Part shown: piece after piece, positions 8,868-58,410 of the stretch | Numbering within the stretch: position 1 is the stretch's first letter | Layout of the letters: each line of letters starts with the position of its first letter | DNA from: Pseudogymnoascus verrucosus | Lineage: Eukaryota | Direction: 5' to 3' (one strand) | NCBI GenBank assembly: GCA_001662655.1 | Contig: KV460218.1 | Length of the DNA: 64,000 nt | Program-made: the position numbers and the translations under genes | The notes under the pieces: model-generated | Told to the model about the DNA's origin: nothing | Databases searched by the model: none | Seen by the model: only the letters and a program-made list of their open reading frames with translations

Positions 8868-8869
8868 TA

Positions 8870-8887
8870 TTTTTTATATTTTTTTTT
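8870..8887 (+). terminator. RNA polymerase III oligo-T terminator of the tRNA gene
   Basis: T6 run then a T9 run starting 3 nt after the tRNA discriminator base. Confidence 0.8.
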
Positions 8888-9306
8888 GTCATTTATTCCG
8901 AGCGTTTAATTGCACGGAGGTCATCGGATGTTCTTCGGACAAGCTTTCTGCCAATCCAGAGCTCGTTTGGATGTTGCAAGCTTGTGGTGTTCGTGTTGTC
9001 GTTGACATGGTGTTTGTGCGGGGTAATATAGTAGGATTGTAATTGCTCAGAACGCGATGTTCGGATATCAGCAACTCTCGCCCATCTATTGAATACGGTA
9101 AGTCGTTTGATTATTTTCGATTTCTAAATAACATACAGGACAAATGAAGCATTCAATAACTAGTTTGTGGCATACCCTTTGTTGAATCCTGTGGCCGTTA
9201 CTTATGTGCAGCATTCCCATGCGGTCTTACAGCGGGGCTAGGCTCCTACTCTGACATCCCTCATGAGTGAGGCTGATGAAGGTTTCTGACGCAGTCACTC
9301 ACGATC

Positions 9307-37542: not shown

Positions 37543-38713
37543 AATCCATCCTCTCCTAAACATATAGTACTTTCTCTAACTATCCAAGTATCTCCACGTA
37601 CCCACTGCTCCCAGCCACCGCATATCCACGCCTACCACGCGTAATCCACCCATGTCCGCTTCACGCAATGGTTGACTAGGCTAGAGGGAGGTACGGAGGG
37701 GTACTTAGGGGAGTAGGTAGGATACATGTGTCTCTCTACTCTAGCTGTCTCTAGATGGCTCATTGTTGTGTGTGACGAGCTATTTTACTATCTTGCTCCC
37801 TCCTCTCTTGTACACCCACCTACTAACATACCTAACCCTCTAAGTAAATACATACATCCATCCATCTAGCTGCTCCTATCTAACTCTCTCCCTCTCTCCT
37901 CTCTTATACAGCCACCTATTAACATACCTAACTCCCTAGCTAAATCTCTATCCATTCACTCCTGTGTGACAAGCTATCCTCCCTCCTCTCTTGTACACCC
38001 AACCCACCAACAGCCACCAGCTCCAAGCTTCCCTCCCTCTAACCCACCCAACCCCCCACAGCCAATCACACCCCCCCAATCCATCTCCCACACCTATCCC
38101 ACCCCCTCCCACCCACCGTACCTTTCCCATACGAGCCACATACCCCGGTACATTCAGGTACATGCACTCTAATAATCTCTCCAACCCACATCCACATCCA
38201 TCTCCACCCCCCCCCCCCCCCGGTCCCTCCCTCCCTCTCTCCTGTGCACACGCCCGTACCTGGGCAAAGCAAGAAGAAACCCGTTACAGAAAGCCTCATC
38301 TCCTCTCCTCCTCTCCCCCATCCCTCCCTCCTCACCGCCGCAAGAGAGAGAAGCAAACGAATCCTCACTCACTCACCCAGTGAGAGCAGGAATTCAATCC
38401 GCCGACTTGGTGTGTGTAGTAGTGTGTTGTGTACGAGAAAGAGTGAACTGCGTTTGCTACCCCCGATTGTCTTTGCCTACTCGCCGGCACCTTCTTCGAC
38501 GAGTTTAAAAAGAGTAGACTTCTTTCGCCTTCCATCCAGCGCAGTTGATCCTGTTCGTCGCCCTCATCAACAATTTCAGCTTTGAAGCTATCTACAGCCA
38601 TCGACTTCAATCAATCCCCCACCACCGTTCCGACCAAGCTCGCGAACCAGAGATCCGACCCAGCGTCTCTCACCCTCACCAGCACCTCCCAAATCCACAC
38701 GCAAACCCTCACA

Positions 38714-41598
38714 ATGGCTCCCTCCCTCAGCACACACACCTCCTTCGTGCGCCCGCGCACCGGCGACCGCGACGGCCGCCCCGGCACCCGCGACCAAAAC
38801 GACCAATCCCTCGTGATCCCCAGCCGGACCTCCTCGCTGCACTCGCGCATCACCCAGCCCATCCCCTCGACCCTGAACGTGAAGCCGCAGCAGCGCGCTC
38901 CCAAGACGCTCACGCATGCCTACATGGTGTGTGGTGTTGGGCGCGAGCCGGCACAGTGGGTGAAGGCGCCCGCGCCGGCGCAGGGCAAGATTGGACATAT
39001 GAAGGGGGCTGTGGGGCAGTTTTGGCTGCCGGAGATTCTGGGGAGTAGTCCAAGGTTGGAGCAGGATAATGAGAATGCTAGGGCGTTGCATTCGGCTATG
39101 AGGGTATGTTTTTGTATCGTTGGGTGGGAATTGGAGATGGAATGCTAATGTTGTGATTACAGGCTTGCTTCCCTCATGATGTCGAGATTTGCACTGGTAG
39201 AAGCCAGCCGCATTGCGTGCACCACTCTTTCGTCCTCCAGCAGGACTCCTCCCACACCCTCTACGGTATTGCCCTCCGCGTCTGGTCGAGGGCTGACGAG
39301 AAGCGCGCCGAGACCATCAGAGACCTCCGCAAGAGGACGGAATCCGACTTTTACGACTCCGCCGACGAGACATACTGGATCCCATACTGTCTCTCCTTCC
39401 TCTCGAGATACCCCCTCTACGACCTGCTCGGCGACTACCTGCGCGGCATGTGGATCCACTGGAACAAGGCCACCAACCTCTTCCACGCCGAGGAGGTCTC
39501 GCGCATCCTCAGCTTCCCCGCCCCGCGCCTCAACGACCTCGTCCGCATCGACATGAAGGATTACGCGCTCTGCTACCAGTTCCCCTCCTCCCCCACCGGC
39601 TTCCAGAACTTCGCCATGTGGCCCCTCTTCTCCTGTCTCTCCATCCCAAACATTGTGGGTGTCATAGAGGCCGCCTTGTCGCCAACCCGCCGCATCATCT
39701 TCGTTAGTCACTACGCTGCTATGCTGACTGTGGCTGCTGAGACGATCCGCTACTGCGTTCGCGTCTACGAGTGGAGCGGTCTCTACGTCCCGGTTGTGCA
39801 TGCTAGACATGCCACTGAGCTCGTCCAGGAGCCGGGCCCATATATCCTCGGTATCACCGCTGAGTGCAGGACTCTCTTCACTGCGCCCACCGACGCGCTT
39901 GTTGTCGACTTGGACCGCAACTTTGTCCTTACTTCCAGCCCACCTACCGCCCTCAATGCCGGCCAGCGCACCAAGATGGTTAACCGCATGACTCAGGCTC
40001 TTAACGGCGATATCACCCCGTCTGGTGTTCCCCAGCACCTCAGATCCGCATACGGAGGCGGCAAGCTCGTCCCAGCTGGCCAGATCATCGTCATGCGCGG
40101 TGAGGTCGAGTCGATCCAGGACCCCGAGTGGTGGAACCAGGATTCCATCATGGCGGTCATGGACCACGTCTGCGAGAAGATGGGCAGGAACACCGGCATC
40201 AAGGCCGTCTTCGGCGGCGCCGTCAAGAAGCCCCTCATGACCAAGGTGTCGATGCGCCACCTCAACGAGATCGTCAGGGAGCGCAACCAGTACTCCCGCG
40301 ACGCGCTGGAGGCATGGCAAGATTTCATCAACCTCAAGGGCAGAATGGACACCGAGCTCGGCAAGGTCACCAAGCGCAACAACTTCCTCGTCGAGGAGCT
40401 CGAGAGCTGGAAACAGCAGTTCCTCAAGTTCCAGGCCTTCGCCGAACAGCTCACCAAGGAGACCACAGACCTCAAAGCCAAGATCGAATCTCACAAGCGC
40501 GAAGCTCGCCGCCTCACCTCCCTCATCGAGCAGCACAAGGACGACAGCGCGCGCATCACCGTCCGCCTCTCCGGCACGGAGAAGCAGCGTGACGACGCTC
40601 TCGAGGCGCTGGTCTTGCAGCAGGAGATCGCCGAGGAGCTCGAGCGCGAGCGCAAGCGTAACAAGAAGGAACTGTCTCAGCTGCAGCACACTAACACCAC
40701 TATCCTCCGCCAACGTGACGAGGCACAGCGTGTGGTTCTTCACCTCCGCTCGCTCATCAGCGGCCAAACTCACCACATGGAGCATATCGTCCGCACTCTC
40801 GGCAAGGACGAGCTAGCCGAGTACATCGAGAACGGCTACGACGACGAGGACCTCGAGGACATCGCCGAAGAGGGCGCTGCTCCCCGTGACGCCGCTGCCG
40901 GCGAATCCTCCGCCCCCGCCGAACCCGACTCCCGCGCCTCCTCGCGCGCCCTCTCCCGCGGCGCCGACGTCAGCCCCGAAATGGAGACCCGCCTCTACAA
41001 CTCCCCCTCCGCCAGCGCGCGCAACTCCAAGCGCCTGAGCAACATGTCCATCATCGATGTGGCGGACCGCCATCTCCGCGACAAGACCGACGCCATCGCG
41101 CATATCATCCGCAACATCAGCGAGCAGTGCGCCGCGGCCGTCGAGGGGCTGCAGCTTGCTCATGACGCCGATGCGGAGGCGGAGGCGATCGCGAGACAGC
41201 AGCGTAGGCTAGCCGCGCAGAGTAGGCATTCTACGGCGTCAGTGGCCAGTGTGGCCAGTGTGAGTGGGCAGAGTGAGGATGGCGAGGCGGGGAGCGAGGT
41301 GGATGAGTCGTCCCTGCTGCACCCGGGGCGCGCGTCGAGTATCCCGCCTACACCGGATCTTATCCACAATCGTTCCAGCACAGCGATGTCCATTGCTTCG
41401 GTGACTACCACCCCTGAGCGCGGATCAGCGCAGTACTCCGACCTCCCCACCAAGATCGTGGAGGACTCCGACGAGGGGGAGGAGAGTTCCACCTCCACAC
41501 CGCAGCAGGTGGAGGAGATGCCCACCAAGGGGCGTCTGCACGAGTCCTTACTCCACCGCCCGAGTGGAGCGAGGATCAGTGCGCTGGGTGGACATTGA
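38714..41598 (+). CDS. DENN-domain protein (putative Rab GEF) with C-terminal coiled coil
   Basis: Exons 38714-39103 and 39163-41598 (intron 39104-39162). HSFVL..LYGIAL, WIPYCLSFLSRYP, RRIIFVSH, YVPV, EPGPYILG, LVVDLD, followed by a heptad-rich region. Confidence 0.88.
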
Positions 41599-43067
41599 CT
41601 CGTTGGGTTTAAACCGCAGAGGCCGGGGAGCGGGGGGGGACGGCCTGATAGCCCTATTTTTGGTAGGGCTGGTGGAGGGGGTGAGGTGGGTGTTAGTGGT
41701 GGGGGGCGGTTTGAACATGCTAGGGTGGCGGAGGTGGTTGGTGGTGCGGGTGTTGTTGTGAGGGAGATTGGGGTTAGAGAGGGGGGTGAGAGGGAGGTGT
41801 GGGGGGATAGTCCGACGCTTGCTACGTTTCGTCGGGAGTCGGTGAGGGAAATGCGCGAGTCTGCGAGAGAGCGCCGTGAACGCCGGCAGAGCAACTTGAG
41901 CATTTCCTCCTCCGCGCCGTCTCGGCGAGAGAGCGGGGTTAGTGTTTCCTCGCGCCGCTCTTCTAGACGCGAGAGCGTGGTGAGTGTTAAGGAGGGGGAG
42001 AGTAGTAGTGGTACGGAGACGGCGTCGAGTCCGCCGCCCGTGCCGAACTCGAGTAAGAATCACATCGAGAAGAAGGGCGGGTTGAGGCCGTTGAGTCTGG
42101 GGACGCATGAGGTGAGGGCGAGGAGGTGGAGGGATGCTATGGAGGAGTTGAAGAAGATGTAGATCTTTCTGCCTCTGTATGTGATGGGGGTGTCGATCCT
42201 TTGAGAGTGTACTGTTTTCCTTGTCTGAGTTTCTGAGTGTTGAGGGGAGAGGGAGAGGGAGAGGGGGAGAAAATGGGCGTCCGCGGCGTCTACGCAACTT
42301 TTGTATTTCTTTGTTTTTCTTCTGCTCGAGAGATGCCTACGGGTTGTGTCGTGCGAGCTGTTTATTTCAGTTCTTTTAGCGCCGAGAGAGAAGGGGGTGG
42401 TGGTGGCATGTCTGCTGTATTTCTGATCTCCTTGTTCCTGTTGCTGTTGTCGTTTTTTCGATACTGTATTGTTGTGTTTGTTTTGATATCTCACATCTTA
42501 TTTTAGCTGGCTAGTTTTTTAGTTGTAGTGCTTCTTTATATCCCCATTTCGAAATTCTTAGGCAATGTTTATTAGTTTTTACCAACTTACCCTACGGTCT
42601 TTACCATCTTACGTGACATTTGCCTGCTTCTACCGCTTGCTGATGCCTTTTTGTTAGACTTTCTTAAGTGAACCATATGTCTCCTGTCTGCTGTGTGTGC
42701 TATGCTCTGCTGTGCATGAAGAGAGATTTCCACCCACACACACATATATATATATATCAAAAAGACAACAACCCCTCAAAGTAGAAGTAAATCGCTGCCT
42801 TTCGGTGTGTCAGAAGCTAGGCGGGCCTGTGATGTGGCAAGGGTGTGTAGAAAGTAAACCCATCCATCCCCCCCACCCCCCTTATCTCACCCACCCACCG
42901 CACCTCAAAAGCATACATACCCCCTTCATCTCCCACATACGACCATAGATTCAAGAGAATTGGGCATCCCGTCCGCTCTGCCATACACAAGCTTGCGTAT
43001 CCTCTGGATAATAGTCTCAATCGTGCCAATAGGCATAGCGTGGAATCGCGGCCCCTTGCCGCCTGAA

Positions 43068-43127
43068 GGGTGAGGCGAGGGGTGAGCAAGGTGAGCAGGG
43101 TGAGCTAGGGGGTGAGCAGGGTGAGTG
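43068..43127. repeat. Six short direct repeats of GGTGAG(C) at the left edge of the accessory block
   Basis: ggtgaggcgagg ggtgagcaa ggtgagcag ggtgagctaggg ggtgagcag ggtgagtg. Confidence 0.75.
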
Positions 43128-43194
43128 GGACTCGGTGGCGTAACTTCTACAGTACCAAACTTCTTACAGTACAGCAATGGTTTCGGTGCTGTTA

Positions 43195-43698
43195 GCGGTA
43201 CGCTTCTCAGATGCCGTTATAGTTAGGTCGTTCTCAATGTACTTCGATAGCCCTTTAACATATTTTCTGTTGTACATCTGAGTTGCAAGTTCCATGAGCT
43301 GAATATCCTGAACAACGCAATTTGATGCCGAAGTGGCTGAACAGCGCATCTGAATCATTCTGTACATTAAAGAAGACCTTGGGGATAGTCACGGATTCTA
43401 AAACATCCTTTAGTGTCTGTCCTGCCTCCCCTGCTATAGTAAAGGCATTACCTTTGAGTACGTGGAAGTTGACTAGATAAGTCTTGTTAGGCAGTAGGAC
43501 GAGAATTTGCAGAATTGAGATAGAGCCAAATCTGTATAGATTTACCCCTTTAATATCGATATAGATAGACAGAGGGCTTGCCGGAAGATCAAGCAGAGAG
43601 TCGACGAGATTGGCAACAGCCTCCCTGCTGTCGACCAGGTAACCGCATCCTACTTCCTGGAGGTTGCTGACCTGGAACCGCCTAACAAGGTCTGGCAC
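43195..43698 (-). pseudogene. Degenerate DEDD-type 3'-5' exonuclease (EXD1/Egalitarian-like) gene
   Basis: IYIDIKGVNL..GSISILQI..TLKDVLES..IPKVFFNVQNDSDALFSHFGI, then a frameshift into VQDIQLMELAT..GLSKYIENDL. ExoI DxE reads DIK and FFD reads FFN (G-to-A changes); the sequence is 3'-truncated. Confidence 0.82.
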
Positions 43699-44193
43699 AT
43701 TATTCGCATCTGACCTTTATAGATTGTTTGTCAGATAGGGATCAAAAGAGGCTTCAATTACTTATACGAATCATCCTTACCAAGGCTGATAGACTTAAGG
43801 CTGCTTATAGTAGTAGAGATAAGCAGACTTAATATATATAAGGAGGCTTTTAACTTATGTCTACTAGTTAATATATACTAGCGTTAGTACTGTCTAAGAT
43901 GTTGTAGCCTTTATAGAGTTGGCCTACTTTGTATAGGGTGGTAAATTAGGTTTAAAGGGCTAGATGCACTTTAGAGGGCGGCCCTAGGTGCTTGTAGTTT
44001 GAACTGTAATTAAGTTATTACTGTTAGATTCGTCGAGCAAGTCGAACGAATTGCCCTTTCAACTATTCTAGCTTTTCTGGTTATTCTAGATGTTCTTGCT
44101 GCTCTTCGGCGTCTGTTTCTCTAGTCGAGCGTAGCATCACTCTATATAGCCTTAACATCTCACCAAGTCTGATTTATAACACAAACCGCGTGA

Positions 44194-44237
44194 CCATTTC
44201 AGCCGCACCATTTCAGCCACCACATTTCAGCCGCACC
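44194..44237. repeat. Three copies of CATTTCAGCC about 180 bp upstream of the NLR start codon
   Basis: ccatttcagccgca ccatttcagccacca catttcagccgcacc. Confidence 0.8.
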
Positions 44238-44416
44238 GAGCACCTTTGTGATCACCAACATCTTGTCCGACGCTATTCTTTAGTTGTTGTCGCCATTCTC
44301 GGTACTATATCCTTTACTTAGAGAAATTCAACTAAGTAGCTCTTCAACGTCACATAAACATACAATCTTGAGATCCTGCGTGTCTCACCAATCTTAGAGC
44401 CCTTATCTTGGTCAAG

Positions 44417-47400
44417 ATGCCTTTCGGTTGGATAAAGCCCCGCTTTACGACAAAGTCAAGAGAATCTTCAAAACACTATAAAGCCTCCAGACCTGTTGCT
44501 TCTGAATGCGTTGCCTCTGGATCTGTTGATTCCGGATCTGCTGCAGACAAGAATGGATTTGGCTTGCACATATTGTATGATTCTACAAAAGCAAACGAAC
44601 AACCTCTGCCAAGTCACCTTAGCCCAGATACTGATATATGCTATGAGGAAGTTGAGTATGTCTATTTGATTTTCTTTCAAGCTGTTCTCTATCACAACTC
44701 GTCTTAGTTTCCTCTCAGGCAAGATATTGCACATTGCTAACCTAGACGGTTTATAGCATCATTGCAATTCATGGACTTGGAGGGAGGCCTTTCGACACTT
44801 GGACGCATCCAAAAACAAAGAATATGTGGCTTCGCGATCTCCTTCCTTTGACAATGACGAATAGTCGCATTATGACGTATGGATATGATGCTGAAGTGTA
44901 TAAGAATAAAGGCACCTTGCGCATCCTCGACAATGCAGAAAACCTTTTGTTTTCAATTTTAAATACCCGGAAGACTGACCAAGTAAACGACCCTGCGCAA
45001 GCAAACCAATTTGCACATACTGATCCCTTCACAGAATCGCAGCCGCGCGATTGTCTTCGTTGGCCATAGCATGGGTGGGATTGTTGTAAAGAAGGTATGA
45101 GTCTTCCTATAGGTGTGAGACCTTCTAGTTGATGCATATCAGGCTCTAGTAATGGCTAGTGAGGAACAGCGGTACAAAAATATCGTTGAATCAACACGAG
45201 GTGTTATGTTCATGGGAACACCTCATGACGGAGCAGATGCCGCCAAACTAGCTCTGACTATAGCTAACATAGCAAATTCCGTGACAAGTATCAATACAGT
45301 CAATCTGGAGCTTTTACGGCGTGATTCGGAACCTCTTACCGAAATTGCGAGGTCGTTTGGGTTCCTTGCACAACGCCTGAAGATTGTGACTATCGTCGAA
45401 TCGAATACCACGCGGATACCGTACATGAGGACTCAAATCATGGCAAGTTAAGGATGCCGTTCGATGGGCCCAGCTGATGAAAGTAGATTGTGCCTCAACC
45501 TTCCGCCAGGTTGAATCTCGGAGACCGAGAAATCGTCTTTAGTATTATGGACGCAGACCACCATCTTGTCTGCAAATTCACGGGTGGAGATAGCCTCGAG
45601 TACCGGAAGGTTAGGAATGCTATTGAACTTCTAGCTACTTCACGTGATGGTATGTGAGTACATGACACGTCGATGTCGTGGTTGTAACAATATCTAATGG
45701 TTTGGGGGCTATCAGCCTCACAGGACCGCCTTCCACGTCTCCAGATTCCCTTTTCACCTGATCCCGAATTCGTTGGCCGCGAACCTGTGCTTCGGGAGCT
45801 ACATCAGAAGGTGTCTCTGTCAAATATTCATAGCCGCCATGCTTTGTACGGCCTAGGGGGCGTTGGGTACGCTTCACTATTCCTTATTATCAACACATGT
45901 CATGCTTACCATATCGCATAGAAAGTCCAGCATTGCAATCGAGTACGCAGTTCAACTCAACAGGCTCCAGCCGTCGACATGGATCTTCTGGGTACATGGA
46001 GCGAACTCCAGACGATTCAAACAGTCCTATCGAGAGATCGCCAATAGCTTGGAATTGCCAGGGCGCGACAACCCACAAGTCAACGTAGTCGAACTTGTTG
46101 TCCAGTGGCTTAGGAACGAAAAGAATGGTAAATGGGTAATGATTCTTGACAATGCCGACAATGAACACCTTTATTTTCCGAAGACCGAGTGCAGTCCTCA
46201 AGAACGGGAGGGAATGGAGCCATCCGAAGCCTTGTCGGCGTATTTGCCTCAGAGTCGACATGGCTGTATTCTTGTGACTTCACGGGATAGATTGACGGCA
46301 ATGGAGATGGTTTTTAATCGAAGCAGAAACATCACAATGATAGAGCCTATGGACGAGGAAACAGCACAAAGTCTAGTCAAGAAAAGGCTTTCTGCAGAAC
46401 AAATGGACGGGGCCAACCTAACTACATTCATTGAAATGTTGGGGCACATACCACTAGCAATCACCCAAGCATGCGCGTACCTCGAGCACTCGGCATTCGA
46501 TGAGTCGACGCCCATGACAATTGCAGAATATGAAGCACTTTTTCTTGAGACGAAGAGTACCCAGCTATATCTTCTGAAGACGGATAGAAGCGACGCGCGA
46601 CGAGACACCGAGCTACCAAGTTCAGTTGTCACGACATGGCAAATCTCGTTTGAACAGATCAAAAGAGAAGATCCATTAGCCGCTGATATACTTTCTCTCA
46701 TAGGTGTTCTGGATCGCCAAGGCATTCCAAAGTCCCTTCTCAGCCTCGACGACAATTCTGCAAAGACCAGGGAAGCACTGTCACGACTCCTGGCTTTTTG
46801 CCTCATTAAAGCCGAAAAGGGAAATAAGACGTTCGAGATGCATCATCTCGTGCAGCTCTCTTTACGTGCATGGCTGGATGACCGTTCGGAAACAACGAAA
46901 TGGATCTGCAAAGGAATTGAAATCCTATATGAAGCCTTTCCTAAGGATGCTTTTTTCACCCCCACCAATTGGCTCGAATGTTCCCAATATCTTCCTCATA
47001 CCCACGCACTTTTACTGTCAAATATTTTGACTACGAAAATTGAAGAGAGTGATATCGACATGAAGACAAAAGCGGTGTTCCATACAACGAGGCTCCTCAA
47101 TTATGTAGGAAATTATTTGGACACACAGGGCCTTTTCGAAGACGCCCTGTGCCAGCATCGTCGTGCCTACGAAATCATGGCAAAGTTCTGTGGTCCCGAA
47201 CATAAAGACACACTTATGCACTATAGCAATGTGGCACAGACCCTCTCGGAGCAAGGCAAACCAGCCGAAGCTGAGGCCATTGAGCGCGAAATCCTACGAA
47301 CTCTTTCGAATACACTTCCAGATGCCCAGGATGACGGATTGCACAGTCTCTCTGTGCTAGTTCATGCGAATTTAGCCCGGTCGCTTCATCGCCAGGGAAA

Positions 47401-48649
47401 GTATGCCGAAGCTTATTCTATCGACGAATACGTGCTGAAAGAGAGGAGGGTGAAGCCAGGCACTGAGAATAGAGACCTCTGGATTAGTATGAACGCAGTT
47501 GCGCAAAGCCTCGCAACAGCTGGTCAGCTGGAAGAGGCAGAAGCAGTTAGCCGTGACGTTGTGGCAAAGCAGACAGCGGGTCTCGGTCCAGGAAACACGT
47601 TTACCTTCGAAAGCCGGAGGGGCCTAGCAAGTATCCTAGTATTACGAGAAGACTTTAAGGAAGCAGAAGTCGAGATCAGGAACCTAATCGATATGGAAGG
47701 GAACGTACTTCCAGAAGGTCATCCGGAGAGGATGAGATCAGCGAAGATTCTGGCGGGCATTCTGTGCAAGAAAATGCAATTTTCAGACGCGGAGGACGTC
47801 CTCCGTGATGCACAGCGTTGTGGCGCGGGATTCTCATCAGAACCAACTCTGTTGATGGCCAACCTTGAGGCTGAGCTAGCTGGAACACTTCTACAACAAG
47901 AAAGATACGACGAAGCAATAAAGTTGTACAGAGCAAGCCTTTCCGTTCGAGACAAACTTCTACCAACGCGGGATCTAACAACCTACAATCTAACGGCGAA
48001 CCTAGCCACGGCTCTCGGCCTTGCGGGAAGGATCACAGAACAGCAGGATATGCTGTGGGAAACGCTGCAGGCGCTCACACAGCTCTCGGACCTCAACATG
48101 AGACCCGTACTTGATGCTCTAGTTACCCTCGCCAGCTCCTTTGGCGTTATTATAGACCCGAAAAACGTTCCAGATGCCTGCACGAGGATCTTAAAATCAC
48201 AACCAAGTCAGATATCCGATAACTGGGAAGTTTTCAAACCACGCGTGGCATCCCTCAGTTGCGTTTTGTTGGGTCTACGAATGAAGACCGAAGGGCTTGA
48301 GCTAAGTGTCCGCTTCCGCAAACGACCTGACCTGTCCACCATTCAACCTATCATGGCACTCATTGAAATCTACAAGGCGAGCGGTCGTTTCCGAGATGTG
48401 GTGCCGCTAGTGCAGGAACTTGTAGAAGACTTCACTCAGCTCCTTGGTCCTCAGCATCCCCTTACGACTATGCACGTTAGCCTACTCTCCGTGATGAGGG
48501 ATAGCGATTCTGAGGAAGCCGAGAAACTTGCTAAATCTGCTGCCAGCTTATCAGAGGAGCTTGGGAATACGGAATTAAGTGGTAATATCTCTCAGGACTT
48601 GGATAATGTTCCGGCTCTACTAGGAAAGCAGGAGGAGACGCAGAAGTAG
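44417..48649 (+). CDS. Fungal NLR: SesB-like alpha/beta-hydrolase - NB-ARC - TPR
   Basis: Exons 44417-44655, 44757-44982, 45035-45094, 45143-45442, 45487-45649, 45716-45866, 45922-48649. DIIAIHGLGG, WLRDLLP, TYGYDA, nucleophile GHSMGG, FMGTPH, DADHHLVCKF; FVGRE, Walker A GLGGVGKS (split by an intron), Walker B WVMILDNAD, LVTSR, GHIPLAI, MHHLVQ; degenerate ~42-aa TPR units. Confidence 0.9.
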
Positions 48650-49739
48650 TAGCAGCAGCCGTCGTTTTACCATTATTATAGCAGCAGCAGTAGCTGTAAC
48701 AGCTGCTCGTGCTAGCATGTAGTGTTTCCCGCTAACTGAGACCCTATATTCCAAACTTACATTATGGCTTTAGAAGTGAGAGTAATGTAGAGTGGTTCCT
48801 TCTGCCACAAGAAGCAATCCGTGGCACGTGATGTTCTTATGCAGCGTCATCTTTAGAGCTTCTACGATTTCAGAGTGCTCATTGCTGCGGTTATTGCTAA
48901 GTCAAAATATATTAATAAAGATTACGAGGTCTATTCCATTGTGGAGTAAGGCAACCTTTTGAAGAGTATCCAACATTGAGCAATTCATTGGCATGCTTGC
49001 ATATAGATGCAATTACGTTTAGGGCCGAGAAATCCGGCTGTTAGGCCTCACTATTGCGATATTTGTTCGAGCAGCAGCTCAGCCGGTGAATGGATTCTCC
49101 TTTAGTGGGGTAGAATTCAACCTACTGACTTGTATCACGTCTTTGAGTATTACGTATACGAATGGTATTTGTGGTTCACAGACATATCTTCTTCTGCTTG
49201 GTCTCACTATTGCGGCATTTGTCTGACGGGTAACTCGACCGGTGAAGGAATTCTGTTTAGTCGGGGTAGTATTTGGCTCTTGATTGTGAATCAGTATGCA
49301 TGCTTTACACAAGTGCTTTCACTCTACTATTGGTCTTGTATTACATTTCCCGGAACATCGATGGGGAGACTTTGAGCTGAAATGACACCTGCATGTAATA
49401 GCAAATCTTCTCAGTAACGACGACCATGTACAGTTATTAGAAATCATCATACATAGTAAACTGTCATACCTCGATATTGTCGAAGATCATCTTCGCAAAT
49501 GAGATTCGCTGTCTATTAAACATGCATAGCTGTATACTCTTTACACTTTTTTAACTAATGTTTCACCTAACTTTAATACAAAATCAATAGTTTAATAGTT
49601 GGATAAAACCTGTTCTTCGAATCTGCAGAGGCTATTTTGTATAGTATTACTTATATACTTAAGGTATATAAGTAATACTTTAGTAAAGAGAACTACTATG
49701 TATGTTCTTAGCTGTAATCGAAACTGTGATAATATCGCA

Positions 49740-50520
49740 CTCTACTGCTAAAAAGCATTGTGTCTTTCTTGCATATTACAGCTTGTTTTCAGGCGATAAT
49801 GCCAATCTTCAGTAGGCTAAGAAGATCTAGAAGCTAGTAAAAAAACATTTAAGTTTGTTTAAAGCACTCATTAAGGATTTTGGATCTTGCAAGACCGTAG
49901 ATATACTTAAGGGACTCCTAGAAATTTGTACTTTCGAATCAGATATTTAAGAAAAGATTGCGTTCCTAGAGCTCTTTTAAACTACTCTATCCTAAAGTGT
50001 GCAGTAGGCTACATTCGAAAATAAGGCAGCACGTTCTAAAGCAGAGGCTCTAGAAGAGCTAGTATTAGGAGGCAGAATAAATGGGTATAACAGAGATACG
50101 GGTGTAGAAGAGTGTATGTTATTACTGCTGAAATTATCTACCTGTACTAATTGCCTACAGTGCCTAAGCAGACGCTACTTAACTTAATAATGCTCAAAAC
50201 TCCTGTACAAGTGGAATCAAAAGTGCCTTTACTGCGTCCTGCGTCCATTCTATACAACGTACAGCATCTTATTCTAGGAACGACCCAATGTCTGTTAGAA
50301 CAGTGTTGCTTCGACTTTGCAGTCAAGTGGGCTCCTACTATAATCGAAAGCAAAGGTTGGGACTGCGCTGAGGCAGTATAGTTGACATTATAGATAAGGA
50401 CTTTAGCCAAGCTTTGTGATAAGCTTCCAGCAGATTCGATTTTTAACAACTCTGGGATTCCCCTTAGTATAGTCTTCTCCTCTACAGACTCAATTCGCCA
50501 TTCCACTGTTCATTAACTGT
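49740..50520 (+). pseudogene. Stop-riddled remnant of a spliced protein gene ending in an RxxxxH motif
   Basis: One frame reads NLQ*AKKI*KLVKKHL..FESDI*EKIAFLELF*, then an intron-like segment 50114-50160 (GTATGT..TACTAAT..CAG), then VQHLILGTTQCLLEQCCFDF..GWDCAEAV*LTL*I..IRHSTVH. Most stops are TAG/TAA, one transition away from CAG/CAA/TGG. Confidence 0.65.
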
Positions 50521-51445
50521 TAACAAGTGCACATGTTATGTCGATCCTAAGATTAGCCAGGTTTTTCGAACATAAATTGTGCTGCAGAGCGGCAACTCAC
50601 TTTCAAAAGACAAGATGCTGGGTCCATCAAATGCTCGCTGTATCAATACAGCCGCCTCGGCCAGAAGTAGTACTGTACCCCTCTATTGCAGTACGGTGTT
50701 GCATCCTAGGGTCATGGCAGATGTTTGAACTAATGATGATTGCTTTCTTACGTTTTATTCTACTCCTCTTTTCCTCTCATGATCCCTCCTCTACTTCGCT
50801 CTAAACAACCCCGCCATCACTACCCCCCATACCAACAATAAGCCCCCATACCAACAATAAGCAATCGGTAACCATAACCGCCAGCATTGCGTTCTCCCCG
50901 GACGAAAGATCACTAATATTGCCCGCGTCTTGGTGGTGGTGACTGCTGCAGAGTGACTGTTGTTTTGCCATTAAGAGTATTGTGATGGGAGTTTTGATAG
51001 GCGGTAGGGAGTGGGGCGTAGAATAATCTTTTAAGTTTTGGGTTTAGAGGGTATGATTTTTTTTGTCGAGGTTTTGAGGTTTGTTCTTCTTTCGTTTCTT
51101 GGGAGTGAGTGACTTGTTGTGAGATTTAGTATCGTGGTGGTTTTAATAGGTGGTAGGAGGCAAACGTTAGGGATTGGTAATTTGACTTGTCTAGGGAGTA
51201 GTCTTAATGTAACACCTCATTTTATTCCTCAGCAATGTTGTTTGATATCTTTTCCCTATAACATCTATAATCATTATCATACATCCCTAGATACTCTCAT
51301 CCCATGTTCTCCCCTAGCTACTGGTACACACACCGACCTCCTGACGGGGAAATCTGGTCTGATAACCTGCTCAAAATGGGCTGCTACACGCGACAAAACA
51401 AAGCGGGGTGAGATTCGGCTGGTTTATTTTATTTTGGAGATTAGG

Positions 51446-51671
51446 GGTGGGGGGGGGGGTGGTGACAGAGAGAGACAGGTTAACGAGGGGGTCCATTCTC
51501 GCTGACTTGATATTAGAAAAAGTGGGCGGGGGGGGGGGGGTGGGGGCGGGGGCGGGGGGGGGGCGGGGGGGGGGGAGGTGTGGAGGGGGGAAGGGGGGAA
51601 GGGGGGGCTGGGGCGGGGGATGGGGGGGGGGGGAGGGGGGGGATGCAGTGATCTACCTNNGGGGGGGGGGG
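51446..51671. other. Poly-G low-complexity tract with an assembly gap (NN at 51659-51660)
   Basis: Long irregular G runs flanking two N bases. Confidence 0.85.
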
Positions 51672-51834
51672 GATGAGGAGTGTAAAAAGAAGCCTTCATG
51701 AAGGAGGAAGTTTATAAAGATATTAGGGCTATCTCTGTTTGTTAGTAGCGGTTGACTGCCATACGTAGTTTCAGTCATATTTATTGCTCCTAGAGCTAGC
51801 TTGGCTGGACTATATATTGGTGATTTGTCCTTGT

Positions 51835-54800
51835 CTAGGAAGTAATCTCGATGTGATCCTCCGTTCGTGCCTTCTTCCTATCATCCGCTATTCGGTCGCT
51901 GAGCAGCTTTACGATTGCTTCGCGATTTGCGACAGTTTCGCGATTCTCCTCCGCCGTTCGCAACAATTTGTCATCGTCGTTCTCCTTCCCTGCCCACCAT
52001 AACGGCGTGTGGCCGTCGTTATCCTCCGAGTTTGGGTCGACGTTGTCCCTCTCAAGGAGCAGCTTTACTCCTGCCTCGAACCCTTGCTCTGCTGCTATTG
52101 ATAATAGCGTTCGACCCTCGTTGTTTTTCGAATCGACTATAACATCGTCCCTTTTAAGGAGTAGCTCCACGACTGCGTCGAGCCTATCTCTCTCTTTCTT
52201 TTCCCACGTTCCCCTCACTGCCACCGCTGTTCCCGCCCACCATAATGGCGCATGGCCGTCTTCATCCTCCGAGTTGGGGTCAACGTCGTTCCTCTCAAGG
52301 AACAACTGTACAACCTCCCTGTGTCCTTTTTCTACTGCTATTGATAGTGGCGTTCGGCCGTCGTTATCCTTTGAGTTAGGGTCAATGTCTTTCCTCGTAA
52401 GGAGCAGCTTTACAACTGCTTCGTGGTTGTTCGCAACTGATGGCACAACATTCCTAGCTGCTAACCATAGTGGCGTGTAGCCGTTATTATCCCTCGAGTT
52501 GGGGTCAACGTCGTCCCGTTCAACGAGCAGCTTTACAACTGCCTCGTGCCCATTTTCTGCTGCCCATGATAGTGGCGTCTGGCCCCTAAGGTCCTTTAGG
52601 TCGGCTACAATATTGTCCTGATCTATAAGTAGCTGTACGACTGCCTCGTGCCCCATCGCCGCTGCCTTTAATAGCGGCGTCTCACCGTAGCTGTCCTTTG
52701 AGTTAACTGCGACATCGTCCCGCTCGAGGAGCAGCTTCACAACTGCCTCGTGCCCACTACTTGCTGCCATTGACAGCGGCGTCCGACCTTCATCATCCTT
52801 TGAGTCCGCTACAATATCGTGTCTCATAAGGAGTAGCTTTACAGTTGCCTCACGCCCTCTCCACGCCGCCCTTAATAGCGGCGTCCGACCTTCATCATCC
52901 TTCGAGTCAACTACAACGTCACCCTTCTTTAAGAGCAGCTCTATGATTGTCTCGTACCCGTACGCCGCTGCCCAAGATAGCGGCGTCTGGCCAAAGTTAT
53001 CCTTCATGTTAGCTGCAACGTCGTCCCGCTCGAGTAGTACCTTCACAACCGCCTCGTGATTGCCTCGCACTGCCATTATTAGCGGTGTCCGGCCGTCTCT
53101 GTCTTTAGAGTCAGCTACGACGTCATGCCTTTCAACGAGCAGTTTCACAACTGCCTCATGCCCTCGGTCTGCTGCCCACAATAGCGGCGTCATATTGCCG
53201 TTGCCACATATGTCAGCCACAACGTCGTCCCGCTCGATAAGCACCTTCACGGCCGCCTCGTGCCCACGTTCCGCTGCCCACGTCAGCGGCGTCCAACCGT
53301 TAATGTCCCTTGAGTCAGCTACAACATCATCTCGTCCGGCAAGCAGCTCCACAATTGCTGCTTGCCCTGCCCCTGCTGCCGCTGATAACGGTGTCTGGCC
53401 CAGAACATCCCTTGAGTCGGTCACGACGTCGCCCCTCTTAACGAGTAGCGCCACGACTGCATCCTGTCCACTCTCTGCTGCCCGCCATAGCGGCGTCCGA
53501 CGACGCGAGTCTGGTGCATCTACACACCCGCATTTTTTATCTCCATCGCCATGCACTAGCTCTTTTAACAAGTATGTCATTCCAAAGACTGCAGCAACGT
53601 GTACACCTGTGAGATATATTGCCATGTCTTGACTATAGTCCTTATACCTATTCTTTGGAAGAAACATAAACTGGACTGAGCATGCAAGTTGATTCATGTT
53701 GGAGAGAAATGGTAGGGCTTGCTCTTTAATTGTTTGCTGGACGGTAAGGGCGTGGGTTCCCCAGTATCGAGCGGCGTAGTCTACGAAGGGGTTCTGCCTA
53801 ATCCTGCTCGCAAAGTCTTCGTCGTTAGTGCAACGGCCAGTGCTGAAAGTCTGGAAGGATAGGTAGGTTAAACATGTTGATGCGATTTCTTCCTGGGCTT
53901 TAGGATTCCAAACTTCTCGCACCCGCTCAAAGTACTCCTGAGTAGTGTAATGGACTAATCGAATGACGTCGCTTTCCTCGTCAACTGTAACTAGGCCTGC
54001 ACAAACGGAGATTACGTCTTCAATATCTGGAATATTGTCTTCGTCGAGTTCTGACTCGCCTGCCTCGACAGCAAGGGCATGAGCAAGCTCCTTGGTTGTA
54101 AGTTGTCTCATTGCGTAGGTAATCCAAGAAAGCACGGTTTTTGCTAGCTCAGATTCCTCAGGTAGTTGACTTTCGATCCTCTCAATCGCTTCATCGTATG
54201 CTTCGTTCAGTGCTGTCGAGCCTCTAGGCAGCTTTTTGAGAGTTGCTCTAACTGCCTTTTTCGTCGTTTTACCCCGTAGAGAATCTACGTGGAGGCGAGC
54301 AAGAAGAAACCTTATTATAGTAAGCTACCGTATTTGGAATAGGTCGAAATACTCACATGCCATCTACTGCTAGAACGATCCCGTCTTGTGTTTCTGCCTG
54401 TAATTCAGGATCGCGCTGGACGCACATTGGCAATCGATGCAACTGGCCGGCAACGAATCGCTTCACATCTGCCTCACTAGCTCGAATCTCCAACATTGGG
54501 GATCCTTCAAATAATTGCTCAATCCTAGAGACAAAACGAGATGTTACCATTAACCTTGTGTCGGTCTTGGCCTGTAGTCCGCGGAGTATAGCAAGAAGTT
54601 CGCTGCGAGTACCGTCGCTGTCCGAGCACTCATCTAAAGCATCGATAACGATATACGCTTTAGAGTAATTGCTAAGAACAGAGTCGAGTGCAGTGCAGAT
54701 CTCATCAAGCGATGGACGTGTCCTCCGGCCAGTATGAAGCATATGAAGAGCTGTAACTGGTTTTCCATATAATGGACGCTCCTGCACCAACTGTTTGAGA

Positions 54801-55653
54801 ATAGCAGCCAGTAGATCTGTAGTGGTCTGCGTTTCTCGTCTTTTGTAATTGCAGTATACGTAGGCAACACCGACGTTGTCACCTTGAAAGGCTTTCCATA
54901 TATGATCAACGGCGATCGCTGCGATCATTGTCTTCCCAGCTCCAGGAATGCCAGGGCAGAATAGGTCCTCCTTCGTTCCTTGAAGCCAGTTGGTGAACTC
55001 AGGAGATACAACGAACCATTGGCCTGTCCCTTCCTGTCTTCTGCCAATAAAGTCGGATTGTTGAGCCGGGAAATCGGTTGATGATAGCCAGTCCGTAATA
55101 ACGCGATATTGTTCGCTGACCTGACTCTCCTGTAGTGACCTGACTGTATTTGTGATAACAGTGGTATCGATCTTCAATGCTTGAGATAATTTGCTGTTCT
55201 AGTCAGTCATTCAGTTTCTATCTAGGGCAAATATCCTTACAAATGATCCATCTCCAGTGCGATTTGGGTGAGCGATTTAAGCCGTTCAATTCTCATTAGT
55301 ATGTTGGCAACCTCTTCTTTGCTAAATTTCCAGCTGAGCACACCGCCAATATTTGTTCTACTAGAAGCGGACGACGTAAATTTTGACTTCAGTTGCTCAA
55401 GGGCAGACCTATACTGATCAATAGGTCCGTTGGCAGCAGCAAGAGCTTGCACCTCCCCATACCAGCCGTCATTAGATGACACTTCATCGAGGCGGTACAT
55501 TAGCGTCACGAGTAGATTAGAGACGTTTGATATTTCAATTGCACATTGCGCACGATCCTTAGATGTGTCTTTCAAATCGTTTAGACATCCGATAATAACG
55601 CTGGTGAGCTGTACGACAGCAATAATGCTTGCGGTGATACTGAGTGGATCCAT
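51835..55653 (-). CDS. Fungal NLR: HeLo-like N-terminal helical domain - NACHT - ankyrin repeats
   Basis: Exons 55653-55241, 55193-54357, 54310-51835. N-terminus MDPLSITASIIAVVQLT..LSWKFSKEEV..RIERLKS; GTGQWF, Walker A GIPGAGKT, Walker B YIVIDALDEC, VTSR, GMFLLARLHVDSL (across an intron), LVHYTTQEYF; about 15 34-aa ANK repeats. Confidence 0.92.
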
Positions 55654-56057
55654 ATTGGGTGTTCGAATTCAGGGTTTCTCTAACGGCTATCAAAGTAACA
55701 GGGCAGCAAAGCAACTTCAGTAACTGGGAACCTCTGTCGTGAACGGCCTCGTCCGGTGGGGAGTATGTTCTCCCATTTCAGCCCAAGGCTGGCGTCTTGC
55801 GATGAGCCCCGCGGAAGGATGCCATTGCTTGGCGCGGTGACGGACGGGAGTATCCGCACCACCAATCGCGCCAGGGTCGCGCTTATATATTTTTTTGGCA
55901 TCAGTATCAATACCCCACTATATACCCCGCCATCACACGATACGCAAGCATAACGCCGCCCTTATACCACAAAATACCTCTCGCTAGCTGTACTATAGAG
56001 ATTGTACTGCCGTACGTGACTTTCTTCAACGTCACGGGACGGACAGCCAGGTGGGCG

Positions 56058-57842
56058 ATGGAAACAACCAATGCGCCGCCGCAAGGAGTAGAAGAAATAA
56101 AACAGCAGCTCGATGAAGCGGGCACGGATGAAACAGGCATGGGAGAGGAGATTGCGAGGTTATACCTAGACTGTCCTTCTCAATCCGCAAAGGACGTGAA
56201 ATCATGGCTCGAATCCACCTCCCACTTCCACCGCTTCGAGAAAATCTTTCACACCCCTTCAACACCCTCCTCTTCCGTTTCCGCGCCACACCTACGCATA
56301 CCGACTACCATCTTACTCCCCCTATCTTCATCCCCAGCTGAGGCGCGCGCGGTTCTTCCCTCACCACCCCCAGAACCAGGCCTCATGGAAAGGATTTCTG
56401 TTGTGCTACTGGCTGTTTCGCCTGCGAGCAACGCGCTAGGAGAACCGGGAACAGTATCAAAAGCTTCACACCACCTCTCCGAACCCTTTCTCACTTTTCT
56501 CTCTCACCCCGCTGTCAGCTCACTAGTTGACTCACAAACTCAAGAGTCTCTCCTCTCTAACCTCCCTAAACGATACACCGTCTACACCCCATTGGCCCTC
56601 CTACCCACCGGCAGCCTATCCTCAGACGCCTGGAAGGCCGTGCTGGATAAAGCTCCTCCTGCAGTGGTAGATGAGCTATGGACCGGCGTCTTGGCCGCCA
56701 TCATGCGACTTGGGGGAGAGAAAGTGACGCATCTAGCTATCAACCACCCCATCCCCGGTTCTGACGAAGATGAGAATATCATCCGCGCCCCCTCGCACCT
56801 ACACACTCTCTTCGGCGACTTCGGCCCCGCCATTTCCGCCGAGAGATGGGCGCTTGGTCCTGGGTTAACGGCAGGGGCTGGGGAGGGAGAGCCGATTGGG
56901 GAAGAAGATTTTGAAAACGCGTTCTGGGTGCGGACGAGACAGAACGGGATTTTCCAGTCCTGGGCCCCGCGCTGGACGATGTTTAGTCGTGGGAATGTGA
57001 CCGAGAAGGCGAGGGTCCTCCGCTTCGGCGATGCGTCGTGGTGGTCGAAGGCTATTAGTGCTGGTGGTGGCAATGCCTCTGGTGGCAGTGATGGGCGAGA
57101 TGGGGAAGATGATGTGCAAATAGCGGTGGATTTATACGCCGGGATCGGGTATTTCACACTGTCTTACCTCTCGCGGGGGTACGCGGTGTTGGCGTGGGAG
57201 ATTAATCCGTTTTCGATTGAAGGACTACGGCGCGGTGCGGTGGGTAATGGGTTTGAAGTGCTTGTGGTGAAAGGGGCAGTGGATTGGGAGGCGGTTAGGG
57301 AGACGGTGGAGAAGAGGGGTGTGGTTGTTTTTGCAGAGGATAATCAGTTTGCGTGGACGAGGTTTCAGGAGGGGTTGCAGGAGCTGGGAAAAGAGGGGAT
57401 GGCGGGAGGGGTGGAGGGGAGGTGGAGGGTGAGACATGTTAATCTAGGCTTATTGCCGTCGTCGAGGCTGGGGTGGGAGGTTGGAGGAATGTTTTTGGGA
57501 GGGGGTCAGGGGGGTTGGATGCATGTGCATGAGAATGTTAAAGAAACGGGTCGAAAGGAGATGGTGAGGGGAGAAGAGATTGTGGAGGTTGTTGAGGGGG
57601 TTGTTGGCGGTGGTGGAAGGGGGGAGGCGGAAAGAGAGGAAGAGGAAGGGAAAGAAGGAGGAGAAGAAAAGGGGGGGATAAATGTTGAGGTTAGGAGTGT
57701 GGCGATGGTGAAGGGATTTGGACCTGGGATTAATCATCTCGTTTTTGATGTGTGGGTTGGTCCAACGGGGGCGGGTTCGGAGATGCGTTGGGGGTTGTTG
57801 GGTGGGGACATAAGTCATATAGTATCTAGAAGAGTTGAGTAG
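56058..57842 (+). CDS. TRM12: tRNA wybutosine-synthesis protein 2 (SAM-dependent aminocarboxypropyl transferase); start codon uncertain
   Basis: QNGIFQSWAPRWTMFSRGNVTEKAR, SAM motif VDLYAGIGYF, WEINPFSIEGL, RHVNLGLLPSS, WMHVHENV, VKGFGPG. Confidence 0.9.
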   Translation: METTNAPPQGVEEIKQQLDEAGTDETGMGEEIARLYLDCPSQSAKDVKSWLESTSHFHRFEKIFHTPSTPSSSVSAPHLRIPTTILLPLSSSPAEARAVLPSPPPEPGLMERISVVLLAVSPASNALGEPGTVSKASHHLSEPFLTFLSHPAVSSLVDSQTQESLLSNLPKRYTVYTPLALLPTGSLSSDAWKAVLDKAPPAVVDELWTGVLAAIMRLGGEKVTHLAINHPIPGSDEDENIIRAPSHLHTLFGDFGPAISAERWALGPGLTAGAGEGEPIGEEDFENAFWVRTRQNGIFQSWAPRWTMFSRGNVTEKARVLRFGDASWWSKAISAGGGNASGGSDGRDGEDDVQIAVDLYAGIGYFTLSYLSRGYAVLAWEINPFSIEGLRRGAVGNGFEVLVVKGAVDWEAVRETVEKRGVVVFAEDNQFAWTRFQEGLQELGKEGMAGGVEGRWRVRHVNLGLLPSSRLGWEVGGMFLGGGQGGWMHVHENVKETGRKEMVRGEEIVEVVEGVVGGGGRGEAEREEEEGKEGGEEKGGINVEVRSVAMVKGFGPGINHLVFDVWVGPTGAGSEMRWGLLGGDISHIVSRRVE

Positions 57843-58240
57843 GGGAGTGGCTTTGTATATATCCTAGATGGCACGATACTTAATGGCTGCGAAGCCTATG
57901 TAATGGAGAGTGTAAGAGAAGGAGGCTGAGCCACCAAGTGAAAATGGCGGAGATTGACTAGACTAGGGGGGACTAAGAAAGGGTGAATCGTCAGAAGTCG
58001 TCTCACAACCTCGTAACCTCGCTTTTTTGTCACTACGAATAGGAATTATGGCAATCGCTTTCGATGGCATAGAATACTCAGATTATGATGATAATTTTGG
58101 ATGGGAGGTTAGCCCAACTGGTGCGATTGGCAACCTGATCGTATGACTCAATCAGTGGTCGAGTATGATGCCTATGCTATTCTATTAATTGGACTCGTCC
58201 TCTCTAAAAGTCTAGAGAGGGAATGTGAATAACAGCACTG

Positions 58241-58410
58241 TCTATAGTAGCTGTAATTCAGATAGGTTTTCTAAATTACCTGAGGTTACAAGCGCCGTTT
58301 ACAGCAACTGTAGTTCAAGTAGGTATGGTTAATCACTCGAGGCTACAACAATCACGCTTTGCAGCAACTGTAGTTCAAGTAAATGCGTTCAGTTACTCAA
58401 GACTCAATAA
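58241..58410. repeat. Degenerate ~59-60-bp tandem repeat, three copies
   Basis: CAGCAACTGTAGTTCAAGTA occurs at 58302 and 58362; a more diverged copy (TAGTAGCTGTAATTCAGATA) begins near 58245. Confidence 0.7.

Follow-up and report, generated by a model that had tools for sequence, protein, structure and literature searches.

The DNA under study is a 64,000-nucleotide (nt) stretch of contig KV460218.1 from the fungus Pseudogymnoascus verrucosus (assembly GCA_001662655.1), referred to here as the window, and the present analysis concerns the interval of 13 kb that separates a DENN-domain gene from the gene for TYW2 (TRM12). Two genes of the NOD-like receptor (NLR) type, NLR1 on the plus strand and NLR2 on the minus strand, lie in this interval in convergent orientation, tail to tail, with their stop codons 3.2 kb apart (Table 1). 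Our spliced models of both, built from the sequence, are identical letter for letter to the deposited P. verrucosus proteins VE01_03707 (NLR1) and VE01_03708 (NLR2), which are located on a single 574,660-bp record and are annotated as hypothetical proteins. In addition to these two genes, the interval contains the relic of a third, a 5S-rRNA-like pseudogene, a minisatellite and a poly-G tract with NN, and is thus poorer in genes than the initial annotation, which had listed four defence-like genes and nothing else. Its description as an AT-richer region between the DENN gene and TRM12 agrees with the profile matches of the two flanks and with the GC content, which is 0.62 in DENN, 0.45 over positions 42300-43058, 0.44 in the relic, 0.48 in NLR1, lower again in the spacer that follows (Table 1), 0.50 in NLR2 and 0.55 in TYW2, with a value of 0.52 for the whole window.

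Table 1. Features of the DENN-TYW2 interval and its flanking genes (positions in the window)
Feature	Position	Strand	Basis
DENN-domain gene, main open reading frame (left flank)	39157..41598	+	PF02141 E 1.3e-40; uDENN E 1e-5
Degenerate 5S-rRNA-like pseudogene, high-copy family	42935..43049	+	Rfam RF00001 14.5 bits, E 1.3
Low-divergence segment common to other lineages (relic, NLR1 and spacer)	43059..51457		contig alignments of four assemblies
GGGTGAGCA-type minisatellite, left edge of low-divergence segment	43067..43125		Tandem Repeats Finder (TRF): period 9, 4.8 copies; period 30, 2 copies
3'-5' exonuclease pseudogene (DnaQ-like, PF01612)	43170..43713	-	frameshift, Exo I Glu replaced, 3' end gone
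NLR1, alpha/beta-hydrolase (sesB-like)/NB-ARC-type NTPase/TPR	44417..48649	+	1288 amino acids (aa), seven exons
NLR1 exons	44417-44655, 44757-44982, 45035-45094, 45143-45442, 45487-45649, 45716-45866, 45922-48649	+	
AT-rich spacer, no detectable gene, locally RIP-like (repeat-induced point mutation)	48650..51440		GC 0.41; no Pfam match better than E 0.057
Poly-G tract with NN at 51659-51660	51440..51672		sequence, N run, TRF
NLR2, N-terminal helical bundle/NACHT/winged helix/ankyrin repeats	55653..51835	-	1241 aa, three exons
NLR2 exons	55653-55241, 55193-54357, 54310-51835	-	
TYW2/TRM12, main open reading frame (right flank)	55806..57842	+	PF02475 23.8 bits, under cut-off 28

Two NLR genes and an exonuclease relic

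The N-terminal hydrolase domain of NLR1 is matched by two Pfam families above their cut-offs (PGAP1, 26.6 bits with a cut-off of 24.3; DUF676, 25.9 bits with a cut-off of 20.3). Pattern searches located the GxSxG nucleophile motif of this domain, GHSMG, at residue 165, and the P-loop of the NTPase, GLGGVGKS, at residue 375, while the Walker B motif ILDNAD was read by eye from the open reading frame (ORF), as the search pattern did not match it. Pfam matches to the NTPase stay under threshold (NB-ARC, 15.0 bits, cut-off 23.5; DUF7779, 22.0 bits, cut-off 27), and a homologue with 61% identity, protein P0254 of Elasticomyces elasticus, narrowly passes NB-ARC with 23.8 bits. The C-terminal TPR repeats score 98.3 bits with TPR_12 and 65.4 bits with TPR_10. 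The lipase-NB-ARC-TPR gene of the initial annotation is therefore borne out by its hydrolase and TPR matches and by the visible P-loop, with a sub-threshold NB-ARC in Pfam. Its frame is open across the six introns, the fourth of which is a 44-nt GC-AG intron. Over this region (45442-45487) three deposited models disagree, and those of the other two strains drop hydrolase residues 269-294 or 269-283. NLR1 is apparently intact; a frameshift would be the alternative if intron 4 were not spliced as GC-AG.

All orthologues of NLR1 fall into one 90% cluster of eight members, three of them named (P. verrucosus, VKM F-103 and 24MN13), four from Logan assemblies and one from JGI. Their substitutions are scattered over all domains, and no hot spot can be claimed. 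The nearest relatives beyond this cluster are found in Elasticomyces elasticus, with P0254 aligned over 1224 aa and a second protein, P0005, 69% identical over 671 aa; they are followed by unnamed proteins with 47-48% identity. The remaining four Pseudogymnoascus matches among the best 120 listed are 35-41% identical. E. elasticus is a dothideomycete and belongs to another fungal class, and its proteins are closer to NLR1 than any further Pseudogymnoascus protein listed. Either patchy retention or a transfer between classes could underlie this likeness.

NLR2 is recognised in Pfam by NPHP3_N (118.1 bits), NACHT (27.0 bits, cut-off 26.7), GPIID_WHD (43.7 bits) and Ank_2 (348 bits in 10 stretches), and pattern searches placed its Walker A motif, GIPGAGKT, at residue 219 and its Walker B motif, YIVIDALDE, at residue 318. 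A 102-nt unit underlies its ankyrin array, and a single repeat family comprises as many as 12 copies of it, which are 60-78% alike. The array is rearranged between strains, with contig joints within 52335-53553 in one of the assemblies described below (X2).

The N-terminus of NLR2 is less easily classified. Exon 1, which encodes the first 138 residues, matches PF17111 with an E-value of 0.015 and 15.1 bits, under the cut-off of 27.2, and the full-length protein returned no match to this family at E ≤ 0.05. PF17111 (PigL_N) is, we presume, the former Helo_like_N. Four of 15 members of the NLR2 family match it, all below threshold, so that none of the 15 passes. An AlphaFold (AF2) model calculated with 44 aligned sequences has a predicted local distance difference test (pLDDT) value of 74 and forms a five-helix bundle that resembles generic bundles only (Foldseek best E = 0.13; VIA Z = 15 to de novo bundles). 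A HeLo-like identity of this predicted domain is plausible but unproven. The HeLo-like-NACHT-ANK gene proposed initially is thus confirmed as an intact NACHT/ANK gene with matches above cut-off, but its HeLo-like label corresponds to sub-threshold PF17111 matches.

By its sequence, the exonuclease locus is a real pseudogene of the PF01612 family, and a dead one. The 153-aa ORF of the relic scores 22.4 bits with PF01612, under the cut-off of 23.6, whereas the family profile is passed by all nine scanned homologues. It has 1101 representative homologues at E ≤ 1e-3, with matches that end at query residue ~133-134. When compared with eight homologues (tblastn), the relic follows frame -2 over 43713-43318 and then frame -3 over 43313-43170. 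Its Exo I motif reads DIKG, compared to DLEG or DIEG in the homologues, and it lacks the homologue residues past ~200 of ~287, with ~85 C-terminal residues gone. The relic terminates at the minisatellite, where the low-divergence segment has its left edge. An exonuclease pseudogene on the minus strand had been called initially, and the frameshift, the altered motif and the missing C-terminal part all support that call.

The same cannot be said of a plus-strand RxxxxH pseudogene, the fourth gene of the initial annotation. A Pfam scan of the interval covered 87 ORFs of at least 30 aa from 42590-44500 and 48650-51423, 53 of which lie in the spacer, and in these 53 neither HEPN nor any other Pfam family was found with a match better than E 0.057. 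R-x4-H occurs three times in the three plus frames of the spacer, which is no more than in 300 shuffles (4.5 ± 2.1), and all six frames contain stops (36-78 per frame). The spacer also holds a diverged 80-nt direct repeat (49038-49117 and 49194-49273, 71% alike). Its composite RIP index is +0.53 to +0.59 over 49501-50500, with values of +0.13 to +0.41 over 43001-44000, and is only locally suggestive.

Divergence and distribution of the two halves

A search of public sequencing runs with positions 39001-49000 listed 24 runs, six of which contain at least half of the sequence words of the query (5 organism codes, 4 studies); one of the six is marked as the possible source. Contigs of four public-run assemblies (X2, X3, X7 and X10) were aligned to positions 38501-58500 at a likeness of at least 85%, and divergence was expressed as differing letters per aligned base. 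In all four assemblies, DENN has 3.6 to 6.6 times the divergence of the segment with the relic, NLR1 and the spacer (Table 2), with Fisher p values from 4e-15 to 7e-4. In X2 and X7, which have cover on the NLR2/TYW2 side, the divergence of that side is ~11 to 12 times that of the segment. Low divergence extends to introns, pseudogene and gene-free spacer alike (10/937 in X2; 9/934 and 14/1826 in X3), and selection on protein therefore does not explain it.

Table 2. Divergence of four public-run assemblies from the window (differing/aligned letters)
Assembly	DENN	NLR1 segment	NLR2/TYW2 side
X2	2.74% (104/3796)	0.75% (49/6512)	8.82%
X3	3.42% (130/3796)	0.85% (71/8335)	almost uncovered
X7	3.59% (26/725)	0.63% (16/2545)	6.78%
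X10	2.94% (94/3194)	0.45% (2/447, one 447-nt contig)	one 228-nt contig only

On the left, the change in divergence is located in the 5S-like/minisatellite stretch, between positions 42963 and 43059, in which X2 and X3 contigs are interrupted; the long segment-side contigs of both assemblies end at 43059. On the right, the switch lies at or past 51457, at the poly-G tract, with an X3 contig ending at 51457. X10 is without cover over most of NLR1, and the holes in X3 and X10 are no evidence of absence; the hole of X3 over NLR2/TYW2 at the likeness of at least 85% could stem from high divergence, loss or filtering. The NLR1 segment behaves as an accessory one with a patchy distribution, and from these alignments we infer that it was recently exchanged between lineages.

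The NLR2 half behaves differently. TYW2 and a gene of the NLR2 family carry consecutive locus tags in 10 further named genomes (03VT05, 05NY08, WSF 3629, VKM F-103, F-3557, F-3808, F-4281, F-4513, F-4514 and F-4515), and the record length reported for the two genes is equal in nine of the 10. Three more named genomes, those of P. destructans, P. australis and VKM F-4519, possess TYW2, and no NLR with a consecutive tag from them is among the best 120 matches listed. The TYW2 tree contains the clades {verrucosus, F-103, 03VT05, 05NY08, WSF 3629} and {F-3557, F-3808, F-4514}, with support of 100/100 and 100/99, respectively. In contrast, the NLR2 tree, calculated from the first ~560 aa, splits with 100/100 support into two classes that cut across both TYW2 clades, one comprising {verrucosus, F-103, 03VT05, 05NY08, F-4281, F-4513, F-4514} and the other {F-3557, F-3808, WSF 3629, F-4515}. 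Approximately unbiased (AU) tests on the NLR2 data reject both TYW2 clades (p = 1.8e-4 with a log-likelihood difference, delta lnL, of 243, and p = 2.8e-5 with a delta lnL of 100). WSF 3629 is an example: its TYW2 shares 91-95% identity with the verrucosus group, whereas its NLR2 shares only 74-75% with that group and is nearest to the NLR2 of F-4515 (84%).

Judged by locus-tag synteny, NLR2 thus has allele classes that are common to several lineages and in conflict with the linked TYW2, as is characteristic of allorecognition loci. The trees suggest that NLR2 is an old resident beside TYW2 across the genus, with two deeply split allele classes, a pattern that would fit an allorecognition-type locus under balancing selection, or exchange or gene conversion. 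The initial annotation had treated the whole block as one accessory defence island, and had named fixation and synteny among relatives as the contrary observation. By locus tags the NLR2 half is fixed and syntenic in the 10 named genomes, so that the block does not behave as one unit; the accessory character is retained for the NLR1 half, which is patchy and less diverged than its flanks, but not for the NLR2 half, which is conserved beside TYW2.

Origin of the interval

We consider it probable that two unrelated NLR loci with separate histories make up the DENN-TYW2 interval, which would thus not be one defence system. Balancing selection would have kept NLR2 beside TYW2 over the long term as two allele classes, unless exchange or gene conversion has remodelled it. 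The NLR1 segment of at least 8.4 kb (43059-51457) would have spread recently between lineages through introgression, parasexual recombination or horizontal transfer, most likely arriving at the same site, with low-complexity repeats as its edges. By analogy with other proteins of this kind, each NLR may act alone as a STAND (signal transduction ATPase with numerous domains) NTPase whose TPR or ankyrin (ANK) repeats sense a ligand. Nucleotide-dependent oligomerisation would then activate the Ser-hydrolase/lipase at the N-terminus of NLR1 or, in NLR2, the N-terminal helical bundle, which is perhaps membrane-acting, and the outcome would be cell death or defence.

A different proposal, already made in the initial annotation, is that the interval forms a functional unit, either of paired sensor and helper NLRs or of an NLR-plus-nuclease system. 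Two NLRs of different NTPase classes are indeed immediate neighbours, and two-NLR clusters are common in Sordariales, where they account for 225/272 clusters (PMC12258605). However, the genes lie tail to tail; in that survey, head-to-head pairs make up 13/225 two-gene clusters. Plant-type pairs combine head-to-head orientation with shared inheritance, and neither is found here: in eight named genomes, drawn from the above 10 other than VKM F-103, an NLR2-family gene adjoins TYW2 without an annotated NLR1 orthologue, and the divergence of NLR1 and NLR2 taken from the same strains is ~ten-fold apart. The sole nuclease-like gene is dead. Co-occurrence of the homologues elsewhere, which had been proposed as a check, was not seen either. 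A search built on NLR1 aligned with its seven nearest relatives yielded 110 metagenome pattern matches and 28 confirmed loci, and 0/28 had an exonuclease homologue or an NLR2-like N-terminus or NACHT domain in the fetched flanks (E ≤ 1e-5); these relatives are 25-52% identical to NLR1 and many of their contigs are short, which makes this a test of the family and not of the orthologue. The functional unit is thus largely refuted, and we regard it as hardly credible.

Two metagenome loci, L020 and L023, carry a sesB-like hydrolase (8529-9245 and 8478-9197, respectively, both on the minus strand) that is 32-33% identical to NLR1 residues 78-321. It lies on the opposite strand, ~0.8 kb upstream of an NB-ARC/TPR gene without such a domain (10001 onward, plus strand), in a split and divergent arrangement.

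We also considered whether a mobile element, Starship-like or other, inserted beside the 5S-like sequence, with the NLR1 segment as its remnant or cargo and transposition as the way in which the segment moved between lineages. In favour of this, the 5S-rRNA-like sequence lies precisely at the left edge of the segment, 5S ribosomal DNA (rDNA) accounts for 23% of curated Starship insertion sites, and NLRs are one of the four recurrent auxiliary families of these elements (PMC11162782). The 5S-like copy is, however, degenerate over the whole model instead of being split by an insertion, and an Rfam search near the right edge of the segment revealed no second 5S fragment. Further points in favour are the AT-richer and locally RIP-like composition of the segment, its near-identity between lineages, and its combination of an NLR with a truncated gene, as though cut from a larger donor. 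Against this, we found no tyrosine recombinase (DUF3435) that could serve as captain, no DUF3723 and no transposase in the scanned ORFs of the interval and the large ORFs of the 64 kb window, in line with the initial annotation, and no terminal inverted or flanking direct repeats bounding the segment, which at 8.4 kb is far under Starship size. A mobile element therefore appears rather unlikely.

The 5S-like match itself is weak, its score being well under the RF00001 gathering score of 38. It emerges in an Rfam search of 181 nt, while no match at E ≤ 1 was obtained with the 14 kb interval as query. The alignment covers all 120 model positions, with the best fit in the first ~62 nt; other copies of the family have a related but more diverged 3' part after these first ~62 nt. 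In the bin 42503-43169, the summed contig depth is 2375 compared to ~35 in X2 and 2592 compared to ~57 in X3, ~45-70 times the neighbouring depth, and loose contig ends are present at 42934 and 42995. The stretch 42935-43049 may be a 5S pseudogene or belong to a 5S-derived repeat family.

Rather than by exchange, the whole interval could have been inherited vertically, with NLR1 lost in most lineages and the segment evolving slowly wherever it was kept. One conserved site would agree with the X2 and X3 contigs, whose ends fall at the same repeats as in the window, and synteny in the genus is reported to be high (PMC4438637). One NLR1 orthologue, P0247, is more diverged than the others at 96.6% identity, and the distribution of NLR1 may accordingly be in part older or vertical. 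In 4/4 assemblies, however, the conserved DENN gene has 3.6 to 6.6 times the divergence of a segment that includes a pseudogene, introns and an AT-rich spacer, a difference that constraint does not explain, and we judge vertical inheritance very unlikely. A bolder version of exchange, in which the segment is a small self-contained cassette that ferries an NLR between clonal lineages into a repeat-bounded site beside NLR2 as an ancient two-allele allorecognition (het-type) locus, we hold to be unlikely. If it were true, horizontal traffic into a fixed 'landing pad' would supply a nearly asexual genus with new immune receptors, and the segment would be a candidate for the kind of vector on which Leushkin et al. 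speculated for the MAT locus (PMC4438637).

Several observations, the divergent P0247 among them, weigh against a composite of two loci with separate histories. The two halves of the window, the NLR1 side and the NLR2 side, are joined across the poly-G/NN tract, which looks like an assembly gap or a low-quality join. Because this tract lies between them, the adjacency of NLR1 and NLR2 in this record passes through an assembly join, and their consecutive P. verrucosus tags are not independent of the join because both come from that same record. In VKM F-103 the tags are 05572 (TYW2), 05573 (NLR2) and 05575 (NLR1), but NLR2 and NLR1 are on separate records of 7,959 and 13,177 bp, so that the join is unbridged there too. 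On the left, no X2 or X3 contig bridges 42963-43059. The 'same site' of arrival is therefore deduced, since the contigs end in repeats on both sides. No empty site was seen, the intervals of genomes without NLR1 being outside the comparison. X3 is almost uncovered over 53175-58500 despite a depth of ~50 over DENN and the NLR1 segment. The intact frame of NLR1 hinges on the predicted GC-AG intron 4. Exchanged fragments published for the genus (mean 878 nt, PMC4438637) are about ten times shorter than the NLR1 segment. As to NLR2, its adjacency to TYW2 elsewhere is judged from consecutive locus tags and not from DNA. The family is also multi-copy, with several paralogues per genome and 78-87% NACHT identity, and paralogue replacement or gene conversion could mimic ancient NLR2 alleles.

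Relation to known systems and neighbouring features

Both NLR architectures are ordinary for fungi. NLR1 has the same domain order as the sesB-like/NB-ARC/TPR NLRs, such as Podospora anserina Pa_2_10340 (Dyrka et al. 2014, PMC4986451), and the sesB-like domain ranks among the four most frequent N-terminal domains in fungal NLRs, with ~20% of the annotated ones (PMC4986451). It differs from NLRs of the Pa_2_10340 type in that its Pfam NB-ARC match is sub-threshold, and the likeness is one of sequence alone. TPR repeats of Podospora NLRs are described as having high internal conservation (PMC4986451). NLR2 shares NACHT and ankyrin repeats with the HeLo-like/NACHT/ANK allorecognition NLRs that show trans-species polymorphism in Podospora (PMC13449251) and with the het genes of Aspergillus fumigatus (PMC11138114). 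As in those systems, its two classes contradict the tree of the gene next to it, and its array is rearranged between strains. In contrast to them, the N-terminus of NLR2 remains under the PF17111 threshold, its ankyrin units, at 60-78%, do not show 'high internal conservation', and it has no known incompatibility phenotype.

The NLR1 segment resembles introgressed Podospora NLRs, for example hnwd3 (PMC13449251), in being a near-identical NLR in diverged surroundings with a patchy distribution, but Pseudogymnoascus is reported to be mostly clonal and the evidence for NLR1 consists of contigs from four runs and not of population data. The lineages of this genus are reported to swap small fragments, with 77 exchanged regions that are mostly non-coding (PMC4438637). 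These fragments described by Leushkin et al. in 2015 likewise have an ancestry that departs from the clonal genome tree of the same genus, whereas the NLR1 segment measures at least 8.4 kb and holds a complete NLR gene. Starship elements that target 5S rDNA (PMC11162782) share with it an NLR as a cargo-type gene and a 5S-like edge; the NLR1 segment differs from them by its size of 8 kb, by the lack of a captain recombinase and direct repeats, and by a 5S-like copy that is not visibly split. Sordariales NLR clusters (PMC12258605) also place two NLRs within a few kb and often mix NTPase types (164/272 clusters are of one NTPase type and 108 are not), but they belong to a different fungal class, and NLR1 and NLR2 are here of demonstrably different age at the site.

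NLR clusters, introgression and trans-species polymorphism are known events, and the present locus is a further case. A literature search (NLR, het, NACHT), at the level of listed titles, found no published work on NLRs in Pseudogymnoascus, a genus that is mostly clonal by report and includes relatives of the bat white-nose fungus. The value of the locus lies in the contrast within one interval between NLR2, which was held through the radiation of the genus, and NLR1, which is near-identical despite flanks that are 3-9% diverged. It offers a compact and testable case of two routes proposed for the diversification of fungal NLRs, one through polymorphism kept balanced over the long term and one through acquisition from other lineages.

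The large ORFs on either side of the interval are of the housekeeping type and comprise a Gemin5-like TPR protein, a chromate transporter, UPF3, ORC6 and BCD1 in addition to DENN and TYW2; the homologues of the TYW2/TRM12 ORF are named tRNA wybutosine-synthesizing protein 2. Two contig joints, 42996->57597 and 43074->56155 (short sides of 31 and 24), were rejected as repeat or low-complexity artefacts, the former landing on a G-rich copy at 57583-57640. Elsewhere in the window, a tRNA match at 8768-8867 (Rfam, 45 bits) spans 100 nt, compared to 71 positions of the model, and is probably an intron-containing tRNA gene.

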